Shown piece by piece: positions 2,996 through 60,299 of a DNA stretch of 64,000 nucleotides (position 1 is the stretch's first letter; the number at the start of each line of letters is the position of its first letter). Under the pieces are notes generated by a model that was not told the origin of the DNA, did not search any database, and saw only the letters and a program-made list of their open reading frames with translations. A program made the translations under genes and the position numbers. Origin of the DNA: Patescibacteria group bacterium (GTDB lineage: Bacteria; Patescibacteriota; Patescibacteriia; Buchananbacterales; GWA2-38-13); contig JAQTQO010000003.1 of NCBI GenBank assembly GCA_028712155.1, positions 2,309 to 66,308 of the forward strand, in the 5' to 3' direction.

Positions 2996-4291
2996 ATGCA
3001 TACCGTCGATCTTGATTTCACCATCGACCGGGTGACGAAAGTGGAAGGCTCGGCGTCGCTGGACGTGAAGGTGCGCGGCGGCAAAGTGCAGGAAGTCCGC
3101 TTCAAGATTACCGAGTACAAGCGGTTCTTCACCCAGGCGATGCTGGGCAAGCCGATCGCGGCGTTGCCGCAGCTTTTGTCGCGCATTTGCGGCACGTGTT
3201 CCAACGCTCACCTCCTCTGCTCGATCGAAGCGTGCGAACATGCGCTCGGGGTGGTGCCGTCGCCGCAGACGATGCTGCTGCGCATGCTGACGATGTACGG
3301 TCTCATGATCCGGGACCACGCGCTCCATTTGTATTTGTTTTCCATGCCGGATATCTTCGGCAAGGATGCATTTCTGGATCTTGATGAATCCAACCCGGAA
3401 CAGCATCAGATGCTGCACGACGGCTTCGAGGTCAAGGCGGCGGGCAATTACCTCGCGACGTTGGTCGCCGGCCGTTCCGTACACGCGCTGTATCCGGCCA
3501 TCGGCGGTCACCTGCGCACTCCCGATGCCGAAGGTATCGCGGAGGCGGTTAAGAAATTAACGGCGGTGCGGCCGGCGGTCCTGCGCCTGATCGACATTTT
3601 TGCGCAGGCACCGTTCCATTTTGACCGGCAGACCAATTTCATGGCGCTGGTTCCCGAGCGGTACGGTTTTCTTAAGGGCGTGATCGTCACCAGCCGGGGC
3701 GATCGCATCCAGGAGGAGCAGTTCCGGCGGCACCTTGAGCGCGTTGTGCTCCCGTACTCCCAGGCGTCGGCGTACAAGCACCAGGCATCGTCGTACATGG
3801 TCGGGTCACTTGCGCGGATTAACCTCGCGAGCGATCACCTGCATCCCAAAACCAAAGAGTCGGCCGCACACGTATTGAAACACTTCCCATCGACGGATGT
3901 CTTTCACAACAATTTGGCCCAGGCGATTGAGATACTCCATGCGGTTGACGATGCTATCGAGATGCTTACGACGCACCAGTTCAAACCGGAACCGGTACCG
4001 AAACTGGTCTACCGCGAGGCCGTCGGGGTCGGCGTTATCGAAGCGCCCCGCGGTACGCTCTACCATGAGGTTGGAATCGGCGCCGACGGCGTGGTCACCC
4101 ACGGAGAAATCGTGGTCCCGACGGGGCAAAACCAGATCAATATCGAAGAGGACGTTCACCGGCTGGTCCAGGATCTTCTGCCGCATGTCACGCGCGAAAT
4201 ACTGACGCATGAAATCGAAAAGCTCATCCGGGCATACGATCCGTGCATGAGCTGCGCTTCCCACTTCTTGAAGGTGAACTGGGACGCGTGA
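2996..4291 (+). CDS. [NiFe]-hydrogenase large (catalytic) subunit, group 3-like
   Basis: N-terminal 'RICGTCSNAH' (RxCGxCxxxH) and C-terminal 'DPCMSCASH' (DPCxxCxxH) Ni-Fe ligand motifs. Confidence 0.92.
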   Translation: MHTVDLDFTIDRVTKVEGSASLDVKVRGGKVQEVRFKITEYKRFFTQAMLGKPIAALPQLLSRICGTCSNAHLLCSIEACEHALGVVPSPQTMLLRMLTMYGLMIRDHALHLYLFSMPDIFGKDAFLDLDESNPEQHQMLHDGFEVKAAGNYLATLVAGRSVHALYPAIGGHLRTPDAEGIAEAVKKLTAVRPAVLRLIDIFAQAPFHFDRQTNFMALVPERYGFLKGVIVTSRGDRIQEEQFRRHLERVVLPYSQASAYKHQASSYMVGSLARINLASDHLHPKTKESAAHVLKHFPSTDVFHNNLAQAIEILHAVDDAIEMLTTHQFKPEPVPKLVYREAVGVGVIEAPRGTLYHEVGIGADGVVTHGEIVVPTGQNQINIEEDVHRLVQDLLPHVTREILTHEIEKLIRAYDPCMSCASHFLKVNWDA

Positions 4292-10802: not shown

Positions 10803-11774
10803 TCAAACCGCGTGTGTCATTCGGTCCGATTGGATTTTAATTTGCGGGTGGCGGGCAAACCGGACTATCAGCAGCGCACCGACGGTAAACAGAAGCGCGC
10901 TTTGCACTTCGCGCACGCTGATGGCATGGGTGATGAAAATTGCCGACCAGACGTTGGTGACCAGCGTCGCCGGCACCAGGAGCGTCGCGACGTACGTGGC
11001 CGGCGCATATTTGAGCGCGGTGTACCAGGTCAGCACATAGCTGGCCAGAAGCCCGCCGGCCAAAAGCACCCAGCCCCATTGCACCGCGGTCAATTGCAGC
11101 ATCGCGGACGCCTCTCCTTGCCAGCATACGACGGTAAACAGGAGAACGGAGCCGATTACCATGCGGGCGGTCGCAACGGTGAGCGCGGACACGTCGCGGA
11201 GGGCAATCTTGGCGATGATATTTTCCACCGCCCACAACATCGTCGCGAGCATGATCATCAATTCGCCCGCGTTATAACGGAATCCGGAAAAACCGCCTAC
11301 CAGCAGGTTGGCCGCAAAAATTGCGGCAATGCCAAACCATTGGAATCGGGTCGTCTTTTCGCGCAGAAGCGGGATTGCCAGCAGCAGCACCCATAGCACG
11401 AGCGTCTTGTGGATGAGGGCGGCGTTGAGGGCCGAGGTCTGCGTCAGACCGGTGAAGTAGAGCGCGAACGGCAAGCCGCCGCCGACCACCCCCACCGTGA
11501 GCAGCACAACCATCTGGCGTATATTCAGGCGGATAATCTCCCGCCATTGTTTGGCGGCAAAAATGAGGCCGACCAGGAAAATCGCAACCGTAGCATTTTT
11601 GAGCGTCGTGAAGAGCACCGGGCCCTGGACAGCGGTGACGGCAAATTTATTGAAAAAGTTTGCCGTTCCGGAAATGATCGCTGTCCCCAGCGCCAGGATT
11701 GTGGCGTATCTCCAACGGTTCTGTACCATAGCGGTTGCTTGAAAAAAATTCGCGTCCGGGTGGAATGCTTGCAT
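10803..11774 (-). CDS. DMT-family transporter (EamA-like, 10 TM)
   Basis: Two EamA-type 5-TM repeats; start ambiguous (TTG 11801, ATG 11774 or 11729). Confidence 0.75.
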   Translation of the reverse strand: MQAFHPDANFFQATAMVQNRWRYATILALGTAIISGTANFFNKFAVTAVQGPVLFTTLKNATVAIFLVGLIFAAKQWREIIRLNIRQMVVLLTVGVVGGGLPFALYFTGLTQTSALNAALIHKTLVLWVLLLAIPLLREKTTRFQWFGIAAIFAANLLVGGFSGFRYNAGELMIMLATMLWAVENIIAKIALRDVSALTVATARMVIGSVLLFTVVCWQGEASAMLQLTAVQWGWVLLAGGLLASYVLTWYTALKYAPATYVATLLVPATLVTNVWSAIFITHAISVREVQSALLFTVGALLIVRFARHPQIKIQSDRMTHAV

Positions 11775-11902
11775 TATAAGGTCAGTTTGGCCAATACACA
11801 AGTCGGACGGGATTGCCGCTGGGAGTCACCCATCTTCAAGAGTGTCGTGAGGTAATCCGCTCGCCGGATTATTTCGTGGTAGACCGGGATACAATTTTAC
11901 CG

Positions 11903-11931
11903 TTGACAAACCGCGTGGTTTCAAGTACATT
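11903..11931 (+). promoter_or_regulatory. sigma70-like promoter TTGACAAACC-N13-TACATT
   Basis: -35 at 11903-11908, 17-nt spacer, -10 'tacatt' at 11926-11931; nearly identical to the promoter at 13130. Confidence 0.5.
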
Positions 11932-12008
11932 ACGTTATTGTTTTCGCGGTTTACGGTGAAATCCATTCGAGGCGGTTGTTCCTTGTTTGGCCAGAAAGGA
12001 TGGTACTG

Positions 12009-12290
12009 ATGGTCGGTGAGTTGGGATCCGGTGGCGTTGAACCCCGTTGCCCGTATCACGAATGGGGGAAACCCGGCGGGAGTATGTTCGACAACCCGTT
12101 GTGGTTTATCGAACGGCTCATGGGGTTCGCCGTTGTCGCTTTGTGCGTCATCTGTGTCGTGTGCGCGCTCATTCCGCCCGTTACGTTTCTCTTGGTGTGG
12201 CTGCTCATCGGCTTCAAGAGCGCGGCAATTGCCGGTGCGCTGGCGGCGATCACGGTGATCGTTGCCTTTAAACGGTTTATCCGTTCATAA
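12009..12290 (+). CDS. small Cys-containing two-TM membrane protein (paralog A)
   Basis: SD 'AAAGGATGG' then ATG 12009; 'RCPYHEWG...DNPLWFIERLMGF' followed by two hydrophobic helices. Confidence 0.55.
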   Translation: MVGELGSGGVEPRCPYHEWGKPGGSMFDNPLWFIERLMGFAVVALCVICVVCALIPPVTFLLVWLLIGFKSAAIAGALAAITVIVAFKRFIRS

Positions 12291-12313
12291 CGGTGTTCCT
12301 TGCGAAGCGTCGA

Positions 12314-12342
12314 ATGCCTGGCAGTTGCCGGGCATTTTTTTG
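12314..12342 (+). terminator. intrinsic terminator
   Basis: Stem 'atgcctggc'/'gccgggcat' (one GU wobble), loop 'agtt', then T7. Confidence 0.75.
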
Positions 12343-12359
12343 CGTTATTTCGCCTCCTC

Positions 12360-12415
12360 TTGACAACGCCAGTGATTTGCGGTAGACTGCCGGTGTGGCA
12401 TAGATAATCATCTAT
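12360..12415 (+). promoter_or_regulatory. arsR promoter (TTGACA-N17-TAGACT) with candidate ArsR/SmtB operator palindrome
   Basis: -35 at 12360-12365, -10 at 12383-12388, inverted repeat 'atagat-aatc-atctat' at 12400-12415 between the -10 and the arsR ATG. Confidence 0.55.
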
Positions 12416-12434
12416 ATATAATAACAAATCATTT

Positions 12435-12692
12435 ATGAAGCAGAAATGCCTGGGGTGCCTGCAAGCGGTGGCGGTCGAGACGCGTTTTAATATTTTCCAG
12501 TACTTGCGGAAATTACGGGGCAAGGCAACGGTGTCAAAACTGGTGGAGCTGACCGGGCTGCGCCAGCCGACGGTAACGTTTCATGTGAATGCGCTGGCGG
12601 AGGCCGGATTGGTCAAGAAAACGCGCGTCGGGAAGAATGTGTTCTGTCGGCTGCAGGAGCAATGTGCGGATTGTCCGCTGTTTGTTTCCTGA
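12435..12692 (+). CDS. ArsR/SmtB-family metalloregulatory transcriptional repressor
   Basis: Winged-HTH 'TVSKLVELTGLRQPTVTFHVNALAEAGLV'; Cys pairs at both ends (CLGC, CADCP). Confidence 0.8.
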   Translation: MKQKCLGCLQAVAVETRFNIFQYLRKLRGKATVSKLVELTGLRQPTVTFHVNALAEAGLVKKTRVGKNVFCRLQEQCADCPLFVS

Positions 12693-15748: not shown

Positions 15749-15811
15749 CCAAAACTTTTCCACGTACCGCGGCTTTTCCTGCCGAGTTTTTTTTGGTATG
15801 TTTAGCCTTAT

Positions 15812-28332: not shown

Positions 28333-28480
28333 GGCGTCGCGCATTTTACTGTTGCCCCTCCCGCATTGACAGAACCATGTCGGCGTGGTAGCATGTTTTT
28401 TCGTTTGGATGTAATTGTCAGGTCTTTGAATAATCGGCTGGGGCAATTCACTTGCATATGAGGAAAAACTGGAGGTTGAT

Positions 28481-28873
28481 GTGGAGCGAATTCCCATGCA
28501 GACGGTTGTCCGTCACCGGCTATCCGGCCGGGTCGGCGTGACGGTACCCGACCACTTCAATATTTGTATCGCCGAGGAAACCTTCGTGGTTTTCGATGGC
28601 GAGCAGGAAGGACAGGGGACGTTCACCGAGGATCTCGAGGTGGTCGGTCCGGAGCATGCCGTGGCGGATCCCGTCAAGTGCGGTATCGGCACCGGCGGGA
28701 ATGCCTGCATGTTTTTCTCCCGCTCGATGAGCGGCTGCCATTGCGAGCGGTTCGGTCCGGACCGTTTTCGAACCATCGCGAGTGCAGAGCAGTCGCCGAC
28801 ACCGCTGCGGCATCCCGCGCAACTCTACCCGAATTGCCTGCTGCCGCTGCCATCAGCGCCCGCGCAGTCCTGA
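28481..28873 (+). CDS. hypothetical protein
   Basis: GTG start with SD GGAGG 5 nt upstream; own promoter (TTGACA-N17-TAGCAT at about 28353) and terminator. Confidence 0.5.
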   Translation: MERIPMQTVVRHRLSGRVGVTVPDHFNICIAEETFVVFDGEQEGQGTFTEDLEVVGPEHAVADPVKCGIGTGGNACMFFSRSMSGCHCERFGPDRFRTIASAEQSPTPLRHPAQLYPNCLLPLPSAPAQS

Positions 28874-28887
28874 CGCTCCTTTCCGTT

Positions 28888-28916
28888 TCCGCCCCCTGCC
28901 CGGGCGGATTTTTTTG
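28888..28916 (+). terminator. intrinsic terminator
   Basis: Stem 'tccgccc'/'gggcgga' followed by T7. Confidence 0.65.
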
Positions 28917-30695: not shown

Positions 30696-30724
30696 TTGAC
30701 GTCACTTCCGTTCCATGGTAATAC
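30696..30724 (+). promoter_or_regulatory. sigma70-like promoter TTGACG-N17-TAATAC
   Basis: -35 at 30696-30701, -10 at 30719-30724, upstream of the Cys-rich gene. Confidence 0.45.
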
Positions 30725-30782
30725 GGGAACGCGTTTTTTGAACCTTGTCATTTTGCTCGGTAAACCCGGTAGCGGAGGAGCC

Positions 30783-31997
30783 ATGACCTTCGAACAACCG
30801 TCGAACGCATTGCTCATCGCAACGCGTTGGGATGAGCTTTCGCCTCCTCCGGGGCCAAAACGGAGGACGGAACTTCTTGCAGCCCAGCAGAGGGCGCTGG
30901 GAACCGAAGTTCCCGAGAATGTTTACTGTAAAATGCACGGAGAAGAGATTTCCGTGCGCCGGTGCTTAGCGTCCCAGTTCGACCCCAAGTGCCTGGGCTG
31001 CAGCGCCGTTTCCCATCTCTGCCATCGTTGCTGGTTGCAACCGATTGCGATGGCCGAACTGGAGCTGTGCGCGGAATGCCTGGAGTTCTTCCTGGCGGAA
31101 GAGAAATCCCGCGGCCAGCCGCAGCTGGATGACGAACGGATCGTTTGGTGTCTCGTTGAGAAACGAAAAGTGAAAGTGTTCGGTTGCCGTCGGCGGCAAC
31201 TGCGCAGCGCCAAGTCGTGCTTCGGCTGCGGCCAACCCGCACGCGTATGCGGGTGCAAGGAATTTCCCGTGTGCTATCCCCAGGACGGCTACTGCCGCCG
31301 CTGTGCGGTGAAAACCTACGGCGGCGATGAGTACGCGCCGCTCATTGCACGGGCGCACGCGCCCGGACGGTACCGGGAACTCTGCGGGCTGCATCGGGCA
31401 AGAGTTTCGAGCCGGGCGAACCCTTCTTTGACAAATCCTTTGCCGGTTCCCGCGGCGGATGCGGCAGCCGACGGTCGTTTGACGGGAATCGATGCGTTGG
31501 CATGGGAAGCTGCCATGCGCATGGTTATGGATTTCCAGGAACACGGCAAGGCGAACACGGGACAAATTTGGCTCGCCAAACAAGGGAGAATTCCCATCGC
31601 AGAGGCCCATGCGCTGCAGCTGCGCCTCGAAAAGCTCGGGGTGCTTGGCCCCAGTAGCGGCACCACGCAACCGCGCCGGTTACTGGTGAGGTCGCTTGAA
31701 GAGCTTGAGCGGGTAGTCCGCCCGAAGCTGAAACCGTCGGGTGTTCCCGGCACACCGGCAGTTGCGCCAAGCGATGCCGCATTAGCGCTGCGGCAGATCG
31801 AAGAGCTCCTGGGCGCACGACCGAACGGCACGTTGGCGCCCGGGCAGGTCGGCACTCAGCTGCAAGTCATCTGCCAATACCTCGAGCCGCTCGGCTTTCC
31901 AACGATCGTTGCCGTGCTGCAACGGGCCAGCGACGGCCTGAACGCGTTCGGGCAGATCATCGGCCAGATGGATAGCTGGCTCAAGCGTACCAAGTGA
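30783..31997 (+). CDS. hypothetical Cys-rich protein (multiple CxxC zinc-finger-like motifs)
   Basis: SD GGAGGAG directly before the ATG; about 22 Cys in the N-terminal 200 aa, arranged as repeated CxxC and CxC pairs. Confidence 0.55.
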   Translation: MTFEQPSNALLIATRWDELSPPPGPKRRTELLAAQQRALGTEVPENVYCKMHGEEISVRRCLASQFDPKCLGCSAVSHLCHRCWLQPIAMAELELCAECLEFFLAEEKSRGQPQLDDERIVWCLVEKRKVKVFGCRRRQLRSAKSCFGCGQPARVCGCKEFPVCYPQDGYCRRCAVKTYGGDEYAPLIARAHAPGRYRELCGLHRARVSSRANPSLTNPLPVPAADAAADGRLTGIDALAWEAAMRMVMDFQEHGKANTGQIWLAKQGRIPIAEAHALQLRLEKLGVLGPSSGTTQPRRLLVRSLEELERVVRPKLKPSGVPGTPAVAPSDAALALRQIEELLGARPNGTLAPGQVGTQLQVICQYLEPLGFPTIVAVLQRASDGLNAFGQIIGQMDSWLKRTK

Positions 31998-33466: not shown

Positions 33467-34258
33467 ATGCGACCTATGAAATTTATCGAAGGTTTGCCGT
33501 CCAAGACCGCGTTTTGGCTCGGGGCGGTCGGCGGAATGCTCACCGTATTGGCGGTGGGGTTTCTCGTGACGTTACCGATGGTGCTGGCCGGTACCGGCGG
33601 ATCCGGCGGCAACGATACCGTGATTGCCGCTAAAGCGACCCCCAGTCCGGGAAAAGTCGCCGGGGCGGCGAATACGCCCGCGCCGGGTGGACTCCCGGCA
33701 GCCGGCGAAGTAACGCCGGTGACCTCAAGCGATCACGTTCTGGGTGATATCAACAAAGCCAAGGTGTTTTTGATCGAGTATTCGGACATGGAGTGCCCGT
33801 ACTGCCAGCGGTTCCATGCAACGATGCACGAAGCGATGAAAACGTTCGGTACGGATGTCGCGTGGGTCTACCGGCACTTCCCGCTGTCGTTCCACGCCAA
33901 CGCGGAGAAAGAAGCGGAAGCTTCGGAATGTGCGGCGGAGCTGGGCGGTAACCAGGTGTTTTGGAAGTACATCGATGCGATCTACGAACGGACGAAGACC
34001 GGCGGGACCGGATTTGCGCTTGATCAACTTGCCCCGTTGGCCAAGGAGCTTGGATTGAACGAAGCGAAATTCAAAACTTGTCTGGACAGCGGCAAGTACG
34101 CCCAAAAGGTGCAGGACATGATGTCGGGCGGCGAAGCCGGCAGCATTACCGGTACGCCGGGAACGATTTTGCTCACCCGGAGCGGTGAGAGCGGCGTCAT
34201 TTCCGGCGCACAACCGCTTGAACAGCTGAAGGCGTCGGTGAACCAGTACCTCAAGTAG
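33467..34258 (+). CDS. DsbA-family thiol:disulfide oxidoreductase, membrane-anchored
   Basis: N-terminal TM, thioredoxin-fold active site 'CPYC', 'VFLIEYSDMECPYCQRFH'. Confidence 0.8.
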   Translation: MRPMKFIEGLPSKTAFWLGAVGGMLTVLAVGFLVTLPMVLAGTGGSGGNDTVIAAKATPSPGKVAGAANTPAPGGLPAAGEVTPVTSSDHVLGDINKAKVFLIEYSDMECPYCQRFHATMHEAMKTFGTDVAWVYRHFPLSFHANAEKEAEASECAAELGGNQVFWKYIDAIYERTKTGGTGFALDQLAPLAKELGLNEAKFKTCLDSGKYAQKVQDMMSGGEAGSITGTPGTILLTRSGESGVISGAQPLEQLKASVNQYLK

Positions 34259-34370
34259 GCGCCTTGAACTTGGAATGATCACCCGCCCCGGACTCCGGGG
34301 CGGGTTTTTTGTGGTGCGAATATCGTGGTATGCTCTTAGTGGCTATCAAACAGGCGACGGGAATCATGCA

Positions 34371-48403: not shown

Positions 48404-48460
48404 GCGGGGACGGGCGGCATTCATGTTTCCTTAATCCGAAGGTGGTACTTTTACTGTCGT

Positions 48461-57054: not shown

Positions 57055-57086
57055 AAAAAAGGGTCGAACCACGGATGGTTCGACCC
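57055..57086 (-). terminator. intrinsic terminator for the minus-strand small gene at 57113-57313
   Basis: Perfect 11-bp stem 'gggtcgaacca'/'tggttcgaccc', loop 'cgga', A6 on the plus-strand 5' side. Confidence 0.6.
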
Positions 57087-57112
57087 TCGTATCTTGCACG
57101 GGGATGTGCTGT

Positions 57113-57313
57113 TTATCCCGTGAGATAGATCTGGAGTTCGAAATCGAAGAAGCATCGATTGCAAACCCCTCCGTCGTCGACCAGCCCGCCGCAACTGCAG
57201 CGAACACCTTGGAGACGCGGCTTCTGCCGGATATCCGGGGGCCGTTGTGCCGACGGTTCCGACAGTACCTGCTTTTGCGCTGGCGCAGGTATTGGAGTCT
57301 TCAACCTTTCCAT
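57113..57313 (-). CDS. small Cys-rich (zinc-ribbon-like) protein
   Basis: 'CSCGGLVDDGGVCNRCF'; minus-strand promoter TTGACA-N17-TATATT at about 57362-57390, SD GGGAGA, terminator present. Confidence 0.4.
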   Translation of the reverse strand: MERLKTPIPAPAQKQVLSEPSAQRPPDIRQKPRLQGVRCSCGGLVDDGGVCNRCFFDFELQIYLTG

Positions 57314-57711
57314 CACCATTCTCCCAAAATAGGTTGAACGAAAGTAAATAACGATTATTGTGCAGCAATATACAACAAATTTTACATATTGTCAAGTAAA
57401 CCGAGTAAAATAAAGTGGGGTGGCCTCGTAACGAGAGTTACTTGGCCACCCCTGGGGCAGTTGTGGGCTGATTGATTGATGATTGCGGCCGATAGATTGC
57501 CCGCAGCTGCTTTGGAGGGATTTTTCCCTCAAGGAACATTTAGTGCCGTTACATTACACCCGTACAGAAATATAGTCAAGGAAATCGTTCATATTTGCTT
57601 AATGATATTCGTGCAAAGGCGTGCATCTGGTACAGGATGTCGCATGACAGCTCAAAAAATGGCCTGGGCGTGGTCCGCTGCACCCGGGCGTGGTAAAATT
57701 CTAACGCCGTT

Positions 57712-59304
57712 ATGCTTTCGCAGGTATTACAAACGATTACTTTGCCCGATGCCCCGGGTAGTTACCAGTTTCTCAACGCCGAAGGCGTGGTGATTTATGT
57801 CGGCAAGGCAAAAAATCTTGCCCGCCGGGTGGCAAGCTATTTGCGCGAAACCGCGGATGAAAAAACAGCGAAACTTGTTCGGGAAATTACCGATCTCCAA
57901 TTCACCGTTACCCGAAACGAAGTCGAGGCGTTGTTGCTGGAAGCAAAGCTTATCAAGGAGCATCAGCCGAAGTACAATGTGGCGCTCAAGGGCGGTGAAC
58001 GTTATGCGTATATTCAGGTGACCAATGATGCGTTTCCGCGACTGGTGACCACGCGCAAGCCATTGCGCAGCGACCGGGTGTTTGGGCCGTACACGTCAGG
58101 CGAAGCGCGGGTGGAGGCCCTCCATCTCGCTAATACTTTGTTCAAGTTGCGCGTATGCAAACGTCTGCCGAAGCGCGCATGCCTGCTCTATCACCTGAAG
58201 CTATGCGCGGCGCCGTGCATCGGAAAAATTTCTGTTGAAGATTATCGGGCAAACATCCGGAGAGCCGAAAGCTTTTTGCGCGGTGACGTACAGCCGCTGC
58301 TGGAGCGACTGGAGCAAGAAATGCGCGCCTATGCCGCCCGCGAGCAGTACGAAATGGCGAAAGTGCGCCGCGACCAGATCCGCGCCCTGCGCCACCTCGG
58401 CGTGAATCCGGTGGGCAAACCGCGCCGCGCGTACGATCAGGATGCGGTGAATTTTGTCGCCAGCCCGTCGAAAATGGTGGTGCAGATATTTCACATCAGC
58501 CGCGGGGTGATTTCCCGGCGGCGCGAGTTTAGCGTGCGGCGCACTTTGGGCCAGAGCGATCAGCGACTGCTGACCGATTTTCTCATCCAATATTACTACA
58601 CGGAAGACATCCCGGAGGAAATCATCACGCCAATCGCTCTGTCCGAAGCCGCTTTGGTGGGGGAGTATCTGGCAAAGGAGTCCGGTCGTCGCGTGGCCAT
58701 TACCGTGCCGCAGCAAGGGGAAAAAATGCGGCTTTTGGAGTTGCTGGCTGAAAACATTTCCGTGAGCGTGAAGGCCGGCGACAGTGCCTTGCTGGAACTC
58801 CAGGAAAAACTCCGGCTGCCGCGGCTGCCGCGGGTGATCGAATGCGTTGATATTTCTAATCTCGGTCCGACCAATCTGGTCGGGTCACTGGTGACGTTTT
58901 GCGACGGCCATCCGGACAAAGATAATTACCGGCGGTTTAAAATCCGTACCGTACGCGGCCAGTCGGACTACGATGCCATGCGCGAAGTCATCGAACGCCG
59001 TTTCCGCCGGTTGCTGGCGGAGAAAATCCCGCTGCCGGACCTCGTGCTGGTGGACGGCGGTAAGCCGCAGCTCTCCGCGGCGCTGTCGGTTTTTCGGCAG
59101 CTCGGCGTGACCCAGCCGGTGGCGGGGCTTGCCAAAAAATTTGAGGAACTCTACACGACCGATACGATGTACCCGCTCAGACTGCCCAAAACCTCGGCTG
59201 CTTTACATCTGATGCAGCGCATCCGCAACGAGGCGCACCGCTTCGCCATCGCATACCAGCGCCTGCTGCGGAGCAAAAGTTTCTTGCAATCCGGGGATGC
59301 GTGA
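57712..59304 (+). CDS. uvrC: excinuclease ABC subunit C, lacking the C-terminal (HhH)2 domain
   Basis: GIY-YIG 'GSYQFLNAEGVVIYVGKAKNLARRV', UvrBC-interaction and RNase H-like endonuclease domains; ends 'IAYQRLLRSKSFLQSGDA' before where HhH normally begins; a TGgTAAAAT element 12 nt upstream suggests a near-leaderless transcript. Confidence 0.85.
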   Translation: MLSQVLQTITLPDAPGSYQFLNAEGVVIYVGKAKNLARRVASYLRETADEKTAKLVREITDLQFTVTRNEVEALLLEAKLIKEHQPKYNVALKGGERYAYIQVTNDAFPRLVTTRKPLRSDRVFGPYTSGEARVEALHLANTLFKLRVCKRLPKRACLLYHLKLCAAPCIGKISVEDYRANIRRAESFLRGDVQPLLERLEQEMRAYAAREQYEMAKVRRDQIRALRHLGVNPVGKPRRAYDQDAVNFVASPSKMVVQIFHISRGVISRRREFSVRRTLGQSDQRLLTDFLIQYYYTEDIPEEIITPIALSEAALVGEYLAKESGRRVAITVPQQGEKMRLLELLAENISVSVKAGDSALLELQEKLRLPRLPRVIECVDISNLGPTNLVGSLVTFCDGHPDKDNYRRFKIRTVRGQSDYDAMREVIERRFRRLLAEKIPLPDLVLVDGGKPQLSAALSVFRQLGVTQPVAGLAKKFEELYTTDTMYPLRLPKTSAALHLMQRIRNEAHRFAIAYQRLLRSKSFLQSGDA

Positions 59305-59317
59305 TCAGGCGGCCCCC

Positions 59318-59345
59318 TTGACAAATATTTTTGAACTGGTAGTAT
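59318..59345 (+). promoter_or_regulatory. near-consensus sigma70 promoter (TTGACA-N16-TAGTAT) driving the downstream structured RNA/leader
   Basis: -35 at 59318-23 and -10 at 59340-45, placed 14 nt after the uvrC stop. Confidence 0.55.
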
Positions 59346-59351
59346 CAAATA

Positions 59352-59585
59352 TTCATGAGTCGAGGCTCCTTTGATACCCCTGCCCTGCTGATGCGGGGAT
59401 GGTGGCTGCATTGCCGCTTGCATGGATGATGCTTCCCGACCAGCATCAAGGCAAACTCCAGGTTCAGAGAACCGTTCGAGAAATGGTTTTCGGGTCTCCG
59501 GCGGTGCCGTCGGGTGTGATCTTGTTAGATCCATCATCAGGGGTAGTCCGCTCTCTTCCCAGTGCTGAGAGCGGACTTTTTATTT
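59352..59585 (+). ncRNA. candidate structured small RNA or cis-regulatory leader (unknown family), bounded by a promoter and an intrinsic terminator
   Basis: About 230-nt unit with no credible ORF; long-range helix 5' 'uaccccug..ugaug' (59375-59395) with 3' 'caucaucagggguag' (59531-59545); internal hairpins such as 'tgatgct-tcccgacc-agcatca'; ends in terminator 'gtccgctctc'/'gagagcggac' + 'tttttattt' (59546-59585). Confidence 0.35.
59546..59585 (+). terminator. intrinsic terminator
   Basis: 10-bp stem 'gtccgctctc'/'gagagcggac', 11-nt loop, followed by T5-A-T3. Confidence 0.8.
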
Positions 59586-59630
59586 CAGTTGAAAAAAACC
59601 GCAAATTATGGTACGGTCACGTTATTCGCT

Positions 59631-60299
59631 ATGGGTACGCTGTACATTATGGCAACGCCGATCGGAAATCTTTCCGATATCACGCTGCGCGCGCTGGAAA
59701 CCCTGAAATCCGTTGACCTGGTGGCGTGCGAAGATACGCGGCATTCCAAAATTCTGCTCGACCGTTGCCGGATCGAAAAACCCCTTATCAGTTACCACCA
59801 GCACAGCGGCCCGGTCGGGGTGGAAAAAATTTTGGCGGAGCTTGGGGCGGGGAAAGCCATTGCGCTGGTGACCGATGCCGGTACGCCCGGCATCAACGAT
59901 CCGGGCGGTGTGCTGGTTGCCGCTGCGGTTGAGGCTGGCCATACCGTTATTCCGATTCCCGGTGCCACGGCGTTTGCCGCGGCGTTGAGCGTGTCGGGGC
60001 TGCCGGCGGACCGGTTCACATTTTTGGGTTTTTTGCCGCACAAGAAGGGGCGGCAAACGCTGCTGCAGTACATTGCTGACACAGAGAGCACGGTGGTTTT
60101 CTACGAGTCAACGCACCGGATTATCAAAACGATGCAGCAGCTGGCAACCCTGTTGCCGCCGGAACGCCCCGTGGTGGTGTGCCGCGAGCTGACGAAAGCC
60201 TTTGAAACGATCTATCGCGGGAGTGCAACCGAAGTGCTGCAGCAGCTGCAAGCGGGTGTGACCAAAGGGGAGTTTGTGGTGATCGTGGGACCCAAGTAA
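59631..60299 (+). CDS. rsmI: 16S rRNA (cytidine1402-2'-O)-methyltransferase
   Basis: 'LYIMATPIGNLSDITLRALETLKSVDLVACEDTRHS', 'VTDAGTPGINDPG' tetrapyrrole-methylase-fold RsmI motifs. Confidence 0.85.
   Translation: MGTLYIMATPIGNLSDITLRALETLKSVDLVACEDTRHSKILLDRCRIEKPLISYHQHSGPVGVEKILAELGAGKAIALVTDAGTPGINDPGGVLVAAAVEAGHTVIPIPGATAFAAALSVSGLPADRFTFLGFLPHKKGRQTLLQYIADTESTVVFYESTHRIIKTMQQLATLLPPERPVVVCRELTKAFETIYRGSATEVLQQLQAGVTKGEFVVIVGPK

Follow-up and report, generated by a model that had tools for sequence, protein, structure and literature searches.

What fills the gap between uvrC and rsmI in the genome of an uncultivated member of the Patescibacteria is the question raised by a stretch of 64,000 nt (assembly GCA_028712155.1, contig JAQTQO010000003.1), referred to here as the window. 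A first-pass annotation had described this gap as a discrete non-coding unit running from a promoter to a terminator. The promoter, the terminator and the absence of a conserved open reading frame (ORF) bear out the prediction of such a unit, and we consider this unit a very probable RNA gene that is limited to a single small clade and has no description in Rfam. The predicted transcript is ~232 nt long (~59352-59586) and lies between uvrC and rsmI on the + strand. The best explanation for its distribution is that the gene arose once in a small clade of Parcubacteria formed by this genome and the populations of three related loci, which we label L084, L085 and L090. As to its function, we lean, with a confidence that stays a little short of an even chance, towards an independently transcribed, clade-restricted small RNA (sRNA) that would act in trans through its conserved 5' leader, the body serving as a scaffold.

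The promoter of the RNA (59318-59345, + strand), a strong one of the sigma-70 type, combines a -35 box TTGACA (59318-59323), a 16-nt spacer ending in TGG and a -10 box TAGTAT (59340-59345), and carries the TG extension of an extended -10. This is the near-consensus TTGACA-N16-TAGTAT of the first-pass annotation; the promoter stands as described there, while its distance from the uvrC stop codon is 13 nt instead of 14. Extended -10 elements of the form TGGTAnnnT are the usual promoters of window genes, and a perfect -35 together with TGnTAnnnT is found at only three sites in the 64 kb, the RNA promoter being one of them. Judging from the position of the -10, transcription would start at ~59352, giving a 5' leader (59352-59374) that contains GGCUCCUU at 59364-59371 and could form a weak hairpin. 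A second perfect promoter, TTGACA-N17 with TGG-TAGCAT, is located in the unit at 28367-28915 (+), upstream of an orphan ORF of 130 aa (28481-28873) that is preceded by a Shine-Dalgarno (SD) sequence, ends at a terminator and has no match in Pfam. We considered this unit as a paralog of the RNA and rejected it, since its promoter serves a protein gene. A search of the window with the covariance model described below, with filters off, found no paralogs of the RNA.

The predicted fold is closed by a long-range helix, P1, in which 59375-59382 (UACCCCUG) pairs perfectly over 8 bp with 59538-59545 (CAGGGGUA), and which is present in both the minimum free energy (MFE) and the centroid folds. The closing helix of the first-pass annotation (59375-59395 with 59531-59545) is thus real in the predictions but shorter than had been proposed; we do not accept its extension to 59395 because it competes with the hairpin P2 (59383-59398, CCCUGC-UGAU-GCGGGG), directly 3' of the first strand of P1. 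On the other side, the hairpin P4 (59514-59534, GUG-U-GAUCU UGUU AGAUC-CAU) is directly 5' of the second strand. Between them, a core specific to this genome (59399-59513) is predicted from the single sequence to form four hairpins (59401-59418, 59419-59453, 59460-59497 and 59498-59513), and the 155-nt interior closed by P1 folds into six hairpins altogether, in agreement with the several internal hairpins noted before. Their loops are UGAU, UGCAUU, UCCCGACC, CGAGA, GUGC and UGUU. Abutting P1, with A59545 as the sole nucleotide common to both, comes an intrinsic terminator (59545-59586) with a perfect stem of 11 bp (59545-59555 with 59567-59577), a loop of 11 nt and the U-tract UUUUAUUU. The first-pass annotation had recognized this terminator at 59546-59585, giving its stem 1 bp too few; a simple hairpin scan limited to loops of up to 8 nt did not list it. 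There is no T-tract on the - strand at the terminator. The whole unit has a folding energy of -97.3 kcal/mol (z = -3.15 against shuffled sequences), and the core without the terminator (59375-59545) is more stable on the + strand (-73 kcal/mol, z = -3.04) than on the - strand (-59 kcal/mol, z = -1.76).

The unit had been described as lacking a plausible ORF, and this holds. Two ORFs of 48 aa (59422-59568) and 105 aa can be read on the + strand, both running through the terminator; neither has an SD or a match in Pfam, and neither is conserved in a six-frame comparison of the orthologous loci. Translations of the RNA interval found no Pfam match either. Nor does the RNA resemble any known family: Rfam 15 searched with gathering thresholds had no match anywhere in the window, and at E ≤ 10 the 521-nt region 59200-59720 gave only noise with E > 4 and no match to 6S RNA. 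At E ≤ 1 no family, 6S included, was matched by the loci L084, L085 and L097. The noise of these permissive searches, in the region and in its relatives, comprised GmglnB1, snoRNAs and JA04, the last one through its terminator. ARAGORN found neither tRNA nor transfer-messenger RNA (tmRNA). The statement that the hallmarks of T-box, S-adenosylmethionine (SAM)-I, signal recognition particle (SRP), tmRNA and RNase P RNAs are missing is hence supported by the Rfam and ARAGORN searches. We also rejected a mobile or foreign origin of the core, given that the RNA sequence occurs only once in the window and lacks similarity to phages or plasmids.

Orthologous loci were fetched via the homologues of UvrC and RsmI. 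In three of them uvrC immediately precedes rsmI, the two being separated by a non-coding gap of 326 nt in L084, 651 nt in L085 and 297 nt in L090. The L090 population is widespread and has the same sequence in eight assemblies of ENA, JGI and Logan origin, ERZ4903072, ERZ28563625, ERZ27254763 and JGI 3300025317 among them. The three gaps have the same order of elements: a promoter, a short leader, a closing helix, two flanking hairpins and an abutting terminator. The promoters have a -35 TTGAC[AC] plus TGn-TAnnnT, with TGC-TAnnnT in these relatives, and the sequence of the spacer has diverged. The leader of the relatives carries AGGCGGCUC(C/U)UUAAAA, and its 8-mer GGCUCCUU is identical in the window, L084 and L085, L090 having GGCUCUUU instead; it is predicted to pair weakly in the window and L084 and to be mostly single-stranded in L085 and L090. 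The closing helix has 7-8 bp (AAAUCCCU/AGGGAUUU), a hairpin is found at the position of P2 with compensatory changes among the relatives, and another with a 5-nt loop, which also covaries, at the position equivalent to P4. Position, promoter, leader, closing helix and terminator are thus what is conserved across the orthologous intergenic regions. UvrC in these relatives is 76-80% identical to that of the window, and the distances among the four RNA-bearing genomes are nearly equal (72-82% in UvrC, 78-86% in RsmI). Pairwise identities among the RNAs of L084, L085 and L090 are 70-77%, a level of conservation similar to that of the rsmI DNA.

Outside this clade the RNA was not found. It is absent from the relatives with 74% identity or less in which the slot is covered (L081, L082, L083, L087, L098 and L102), and these have protein genes in the slot or uvrC and rsmI unlinked. 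It is also absent from L001, a 57% relative that was the only one among the matches listed in a contig search with a UvrC profile, the others belonging mostly to unrelated phyla. L086 and L088 are uninformative on its presence, as their contigs stop at the end of uvrC or just past it. In 241 million JGI metagenome records, a pattern built on the motifs that the relatives have in common was matched only by the contig already known from JGI, blastn and nhmmer searches of the window intergenic region against 83 loci gave no match, and there was no relative of the window closer than ~80% protein identity in a collection of 5.8 billion proteins. The slot itself is a hotspot of gene turnover. The genes that occupy it in relatives without the RNA (L081 4601-5897, L083 2315-3538, L102 134-457 and L082 3113-4705) are in some cases an alpha/beta-hydrolase and a small EamA/SMR-like membrane protein on the opposite strand, and in L082 an orphan of 530 aa. 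In L083 (a 64% relative with no rsmI at this place) we found at 3815-3945 a perfect inverted repeat of ~19 nt, CCCCGTACTACAACTTCGA ... TCGAAGTTGTAGTACGGGG, flanking ~90 nt between a conserved promoter and the start of metG, which may be a leader structure.

The four RNAs differ in how much of this architecture is shared in sequence. The body of the window RNA has no blastn similarity to those of its relatives; what the loci have in common is limited to the promoter of rsmI and the 8-mer GGCTCCTT. The 155-nt core of the window RNA cannot be aligned to L084, L085 or L090. However, a covariance model built from the three relatives had its best match in the window exactly at 59349-59587, with a score of 21 bits (E ~3e-5 over 131 kb) under default filters and of 16 bits (E ~6e-4) with the filters off. 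The alignment to the model covers the leader (UAUU.A..AG.C GGCUCCUU), P1 and the terminator but leaves out the interior; apart from P1 and the terminator, the leader is the part of the window RNA that can be aligned to the model. Orthology would therefore rest on this match together with the genomic slot, the type of promoter, the leader 8-mer and the architecture. Compensatory changes were detected by RNAalifold and by pair counting in P1, P2, P4 and the terminator, the last being at the same position in the relatives with five pairs changed on both sides. In total, 15 pairs are changed on both sides, compared with 5.6 ± 1.9 in column shuffles and 0-3 in controls with slid partners. These counts come from four sequences in an alignment fitted to the model, and we take them as supportive rather than conclusive. 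Between the window and its relatives P1 has two double changes, A-U to U-A and U-A to C-G, which argues that its pairing is still under selection in the window lineage. In a neighbour-joining tree of UvrC the four RNA loci form one clade, ((L084,L085),W),L090, with W standing for the window, and since the outgroup L090 shares the RNA type of L084 and L085, this type is ancestral and the interior of the window RNA derived.

Considering that the parts kept are the promoter, the leader, the closing helix and the terminator, we propose a trans-acting sRNA with an active leader. Trans-acting sRNAs typically have a seed at the 5' end and a 3' hairpin for stability, and many in enterobacteria (RybB, OmrA/B) combine a conserved 5' seed and terminator with a middle part that evolves fast. 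Selection would likewise maintain a frame in all four lineages, made up of the promoter, a ~25-nt largely single-stranded leader, a C-rich P1 with P2 and P4, and the terminator that abuts P1, while the interior of P1 (~115-155 nt) would have been remodelled in the window genome to form other hairpins. Base pairing, and with it the function, would reside in the leader, whose CUCCUU resembles an anti-SD and could occlude the AGGAG-type ribosome-binding sites of the few mRNAs of this genome that have a leader. The body closed by P1 and the terminator would act as a scaffold that lends stability and resists nucleases, and its sequence could drift freely. No terminator of uvrC precedes the RNA promoter, so the RNA region probably doubles as the 3' untranslated region (UTR) and terminator of uvrC.

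Several observations weigh against this proposal, starting with the fact that both the expression and the trans-acting function of the sRNA are predicted from sequence. The seed in the leader is not strictly invariant, L090 having a C-to-U change that is equally compatible with the weak leader hairpin. SD sequences are rarely used in the window genome and many of its mRNAs are nearly leaderless, so that an anti-SD-like seed would have few evident targets; in a 7-mer count, AGGAGCC is found elsewhere in the 64 kb at two sites, fewer than the 5.65 expected by chance. The fold of the window core comes from one sequence, with no relative closer than ~80% protein identity. The score of the covariance model in the window (16-21 bits) is only modestly above that of a terminator-like background match of 12.8 bits, hence the assignment of orthology leans on synteny. 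That background match, at 34246-34317 (+), is a GC-rich hairpin with a U-tract between a gene ending at 34258 and another starting at 34275. One of the two AGGAGCC sites is directly before the ATG at 30783 of an orphan gene of 404 aa with no match in Pfam, and is suggestive at most. The region ahead of this gene (30697-30785, +) has a leader of ~55 nt, rare for window genes, and the ATG follows immediately on a strong SD, GGAGGAGCC. The RNA leader and this ribosome-binding site could form up to 10 bp, two G-U pairs included, GGCUCCUUUG with CGGAGGAGCC; the pairing was read by eye and is a lead rather than evidence.

If the leader is not the active part, the body could be, as in a housekeeping or protein-binding RNA, whether a 6S-like decoy of RNA polymerase or a protein sponge or scaffold. 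The strong, near-consensus promoter would fit such an RNA, and so would a large, stable, multi-helix body in which P1, P2 and P4 have been maintained through compensatory changes and which in L084, L085 and L090 displays conserved, purine-rich, single-stranded blocks (GAACCCU and GUGAAGGAA). These blocks are absent from the window RNA, however, and it is precisely in the body that the window RNA lacks conservation. The 6S-like architecture contemplated in the first-pass annotation is not supported, since all four RNAs are predicted (MFE and centroid) to form multi-hairpin junctions closed by 7-8 bp, not a rod with a central bubble, and no model of 6S, SRP, RNase P or tmRNA matched. No hairpin loop contains the GGA expected of a CsrB/RsmZ-like sponge, and a distribution limited to one small clade would be unusual for a housekeeping RNA. 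We regard this explanation as unlikely. A further possibility, which we hold to be improbable, is that the RNA represents a novel structured RNA class of the Patescibacteria, with a conserved frame and an exchangeable core, the two cores binding different partners (protein, ligand or RNA) from the same slot; if true, the RNA would be modular in design, and not an sRNA of the simple seed type. Less is asked of the RNA if the region is mainly a structured 3' UTR, terminator and insulator of uvrC, with a weak or incidental promoter and no function of its own for the transcript. There is no uvrC terminator before the element, the one terminator present must also halt transcription from uvrC and protect the promoter of rsmI, and the core of the window RNA evolves freely. 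Yet short hairpins suffice for this in the relatives without the RNA, a closed multi-helix body of 170 nt far exceeds the needs of a terminator, P1, P2 and P4 covary, and the -35 and extended -10 have been kept in four lineages while spacer and flanks diverged, which makes a mere 3' UTR rather unlikely.

The other role contemplated in the first-pass annotation was cis-acting, with the RNA as a riboswitch or attenuator in which read-through of the terminator would tune the rsmI-metG-cvpA-tatD operon. A multi-helix junction closed by P1 and followed directly by a terminator does resemble an aptamer with its expression platform, and both a SAM-dependent methylase gene and metG are downstream. What speaks against it is the promoter of rsmI itself (59589-59617, + strand; TTGAAA-N17 with TGG before TACGGT), which lies past the terminator and whose -10 ends 13 nt before the ATG. 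A promoter of this kind, TTGAA[ATC]-N17 with TGG or TGC-TAnnnT, follows the terminator in every locus with the RNA, having been kept in L084, L085 and L090, and is likewise present in L082, L098 and L081, which do not have the RNA; its -10 always ends 10-13 nt before the ATG, and the rsmI mRNA is accordingly nearly leaderless. In L085 alone, an unrelated, non-coding-looking insert of ~300 nt (2196-2490) separates the RNA terminator from the rsmI promoter. With a promoter of its own for rsmI, this insert and a core that, unlike riboswitch aptamers, is not conserved at ~80% protein identity, a role as riboswitch or attenuator is strongly argued against. No Rfam riboswitch, T-box or leader matched, and inspection revealed no convincing alternative helix that could serve as antiterminator, although no exhaustive search was made. 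We therefore see cis-regulation of the operon as very unlikely. Neutral intergenic DNA, or the decaying remnant of a hydrolase or EamA pseudogene or of an HhH tail, with promoter and hairpins arising by chance, is highly improbable. Protein genes do occupy the same slot in relatives, and GC-rich DNA folds well, but tblastn detected in the RNA interval no remnant of the hydrolase, EamA-like or orphan slot genes of the relatives, nor a trace of the HhH tail of a rare relative that has one, and Pfam had no match there; the frameshifted HhH remnant that could have explained the region was thus not found. A z-score of about -3 with strand asymmetry and a frame conserved in four lineages with compensatory changes also speak against decay. 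As for a small protein being the functional product, the 48- and 105-aa ORFs are open on the + strand, but they lack an SD and any sensible start context, extend through the terminator and are absent or interrupted in L084, L085 and L090, where substitutions are compensatory in stems rather than synonymous; this is extremely unlikely.

The genes on both sides of the RNA are well defined. UvrC and RsmI of the window have 100% identity to proteins labelled at NCBI as 'MAG: Patescibacteria group bacterium', and the genome is placed in the Parcubacteria, near Buchananbacteria. Upstream, uvrC (57712-59304, + strand) codes for a protein of 530 aa with the Pfam domains GIY-YIG, UVR, UvrC_RNaseH and UvrC_RNaseH_dom. 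The first-pass observation that UvrC stops after its endonuclease domains with no (HhH)2 tail is confirmed, as no HhH domain was found in it by Pfam. Nearly all close UvrC homologues among the matches listed are equally short (516-546 aa) and without HhH; hence, the missing tail is a lineage trait and not a truncation. Downstream, rsmI (59631-60299, + strand; 222 aa, Pfam TP_methylase, named in databases as a 16S rRNA (cytidine1402-2'-O)-methyltransferase) starts at the ATG 59631 and not at the GTG 59562, and is the first gene of rsmI-metG-cvpA-tatD, an order that gene and Pfam annotation corroborated. Its close -10 is not peculiar to this gene: many window genes have TGGTAnnnT ending 10-13 nt before the start and no SD (e.g., 57690-57711, 59609-59630, 48439-48460 and 15790-15811). 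The mRNAs of genes with such a close -10 would be nearly leaderless, and genes with an SD appear to be a minority.

Other features were noticed around these genes. The 1.2-kb gap between uvrA and uvrC contains a small gene on the - strand (57059-57395), with a promoter TTGACA-N17-TATATT at 57395-57367 and a 13-bp terminator at 57088-57059. Its ORF of 68 aa (57319-57113) has a CSCGG...CNxC motif at the C-terminus and belongs to no Pfam family; the peptide is kept in L090, L086 and L089, with up to 64% identity over 33 aa. In the Gr01-1014_31 genome (L081), a transposase of the IS110 family (DEDD_Tnp_IS110 / Transposase_20; 1385-2581, - strand) is found just upstream of uvrC. Downstream of the operon in L090, a UvrD-like helicase of ~1380 aa (11652-12690) has weak matches to Hint and intein-splicing domains, which suggest an intein.

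The candidate phyla radiation (CPR) is almost uncharted with respect to regulatory and structured RNAs, and a full-text search of the literature for CPR non-coding RNAs or 6S found no relevant paper. In a group with genomes in the size class of ~1 Mb, a strongly promoted RNA of ~230 nt with its own promoter and terminator would be a concrete candidate for metatranscriptomics of groundwater Parcubacteria. With mostly leaderless mRNAs in its host, the RNA raises the question of how regulation by sRNAs could work without SD targets, and its conserved frame with a swapped core is a small but clean example of the fast remodelling of such genes. Its general impact is modest, given the restriction of the family to a single narrow clade and a role that is inferred.

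In length, in the strength of its promoter and as a candidate for an abundant RNA, the window RNA is comparable to 6S RNA (RF00013), from which it differs in having a closing helix of 8 bp instead of the rod-like closing stem, central bubble and terminal stem of that family, and in matching none of its models. CsrB/RsmZ sponges have GGA in their loops as a hallmark, and the window RNA does not. The resemblance to the SAM-I riboswitch, with its four-way junction, is limited to a junction closed by P1 and followed directly by a terminator upstream of the gene for a SAM-dependent enzyme; the window RNA has instead a promoter before rsmI, a non-conserved core, no Rfam match and no antiterminator seen by inspection. 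It is similar to type I 3'-UTR sRNAs such as DapZ and MicL in starting right after the upstream stop codon and sharing the sole terminator, although its promoter is placed after the stop codon and not inside the coding sequence. With RybB and OmrA/B it has in common a promoter of its own, an intrinsic terminator, the lack of an ORF, and a conserved 5' end and terminator with a fast-evolving middle. Unlike them, it is much larger (~232 nt) and more structured, with a body of seven helices closed by P1, and it belongs to a patescibacterial host with mostly leaderless mRNAs; there is no sequence relationship, and the likeness, as that to DapZ and MicL, is one of features read from the DNA. The candidate would thus belong to the broad class of bacterial sRNAs, as a member that is absent from Rfam.

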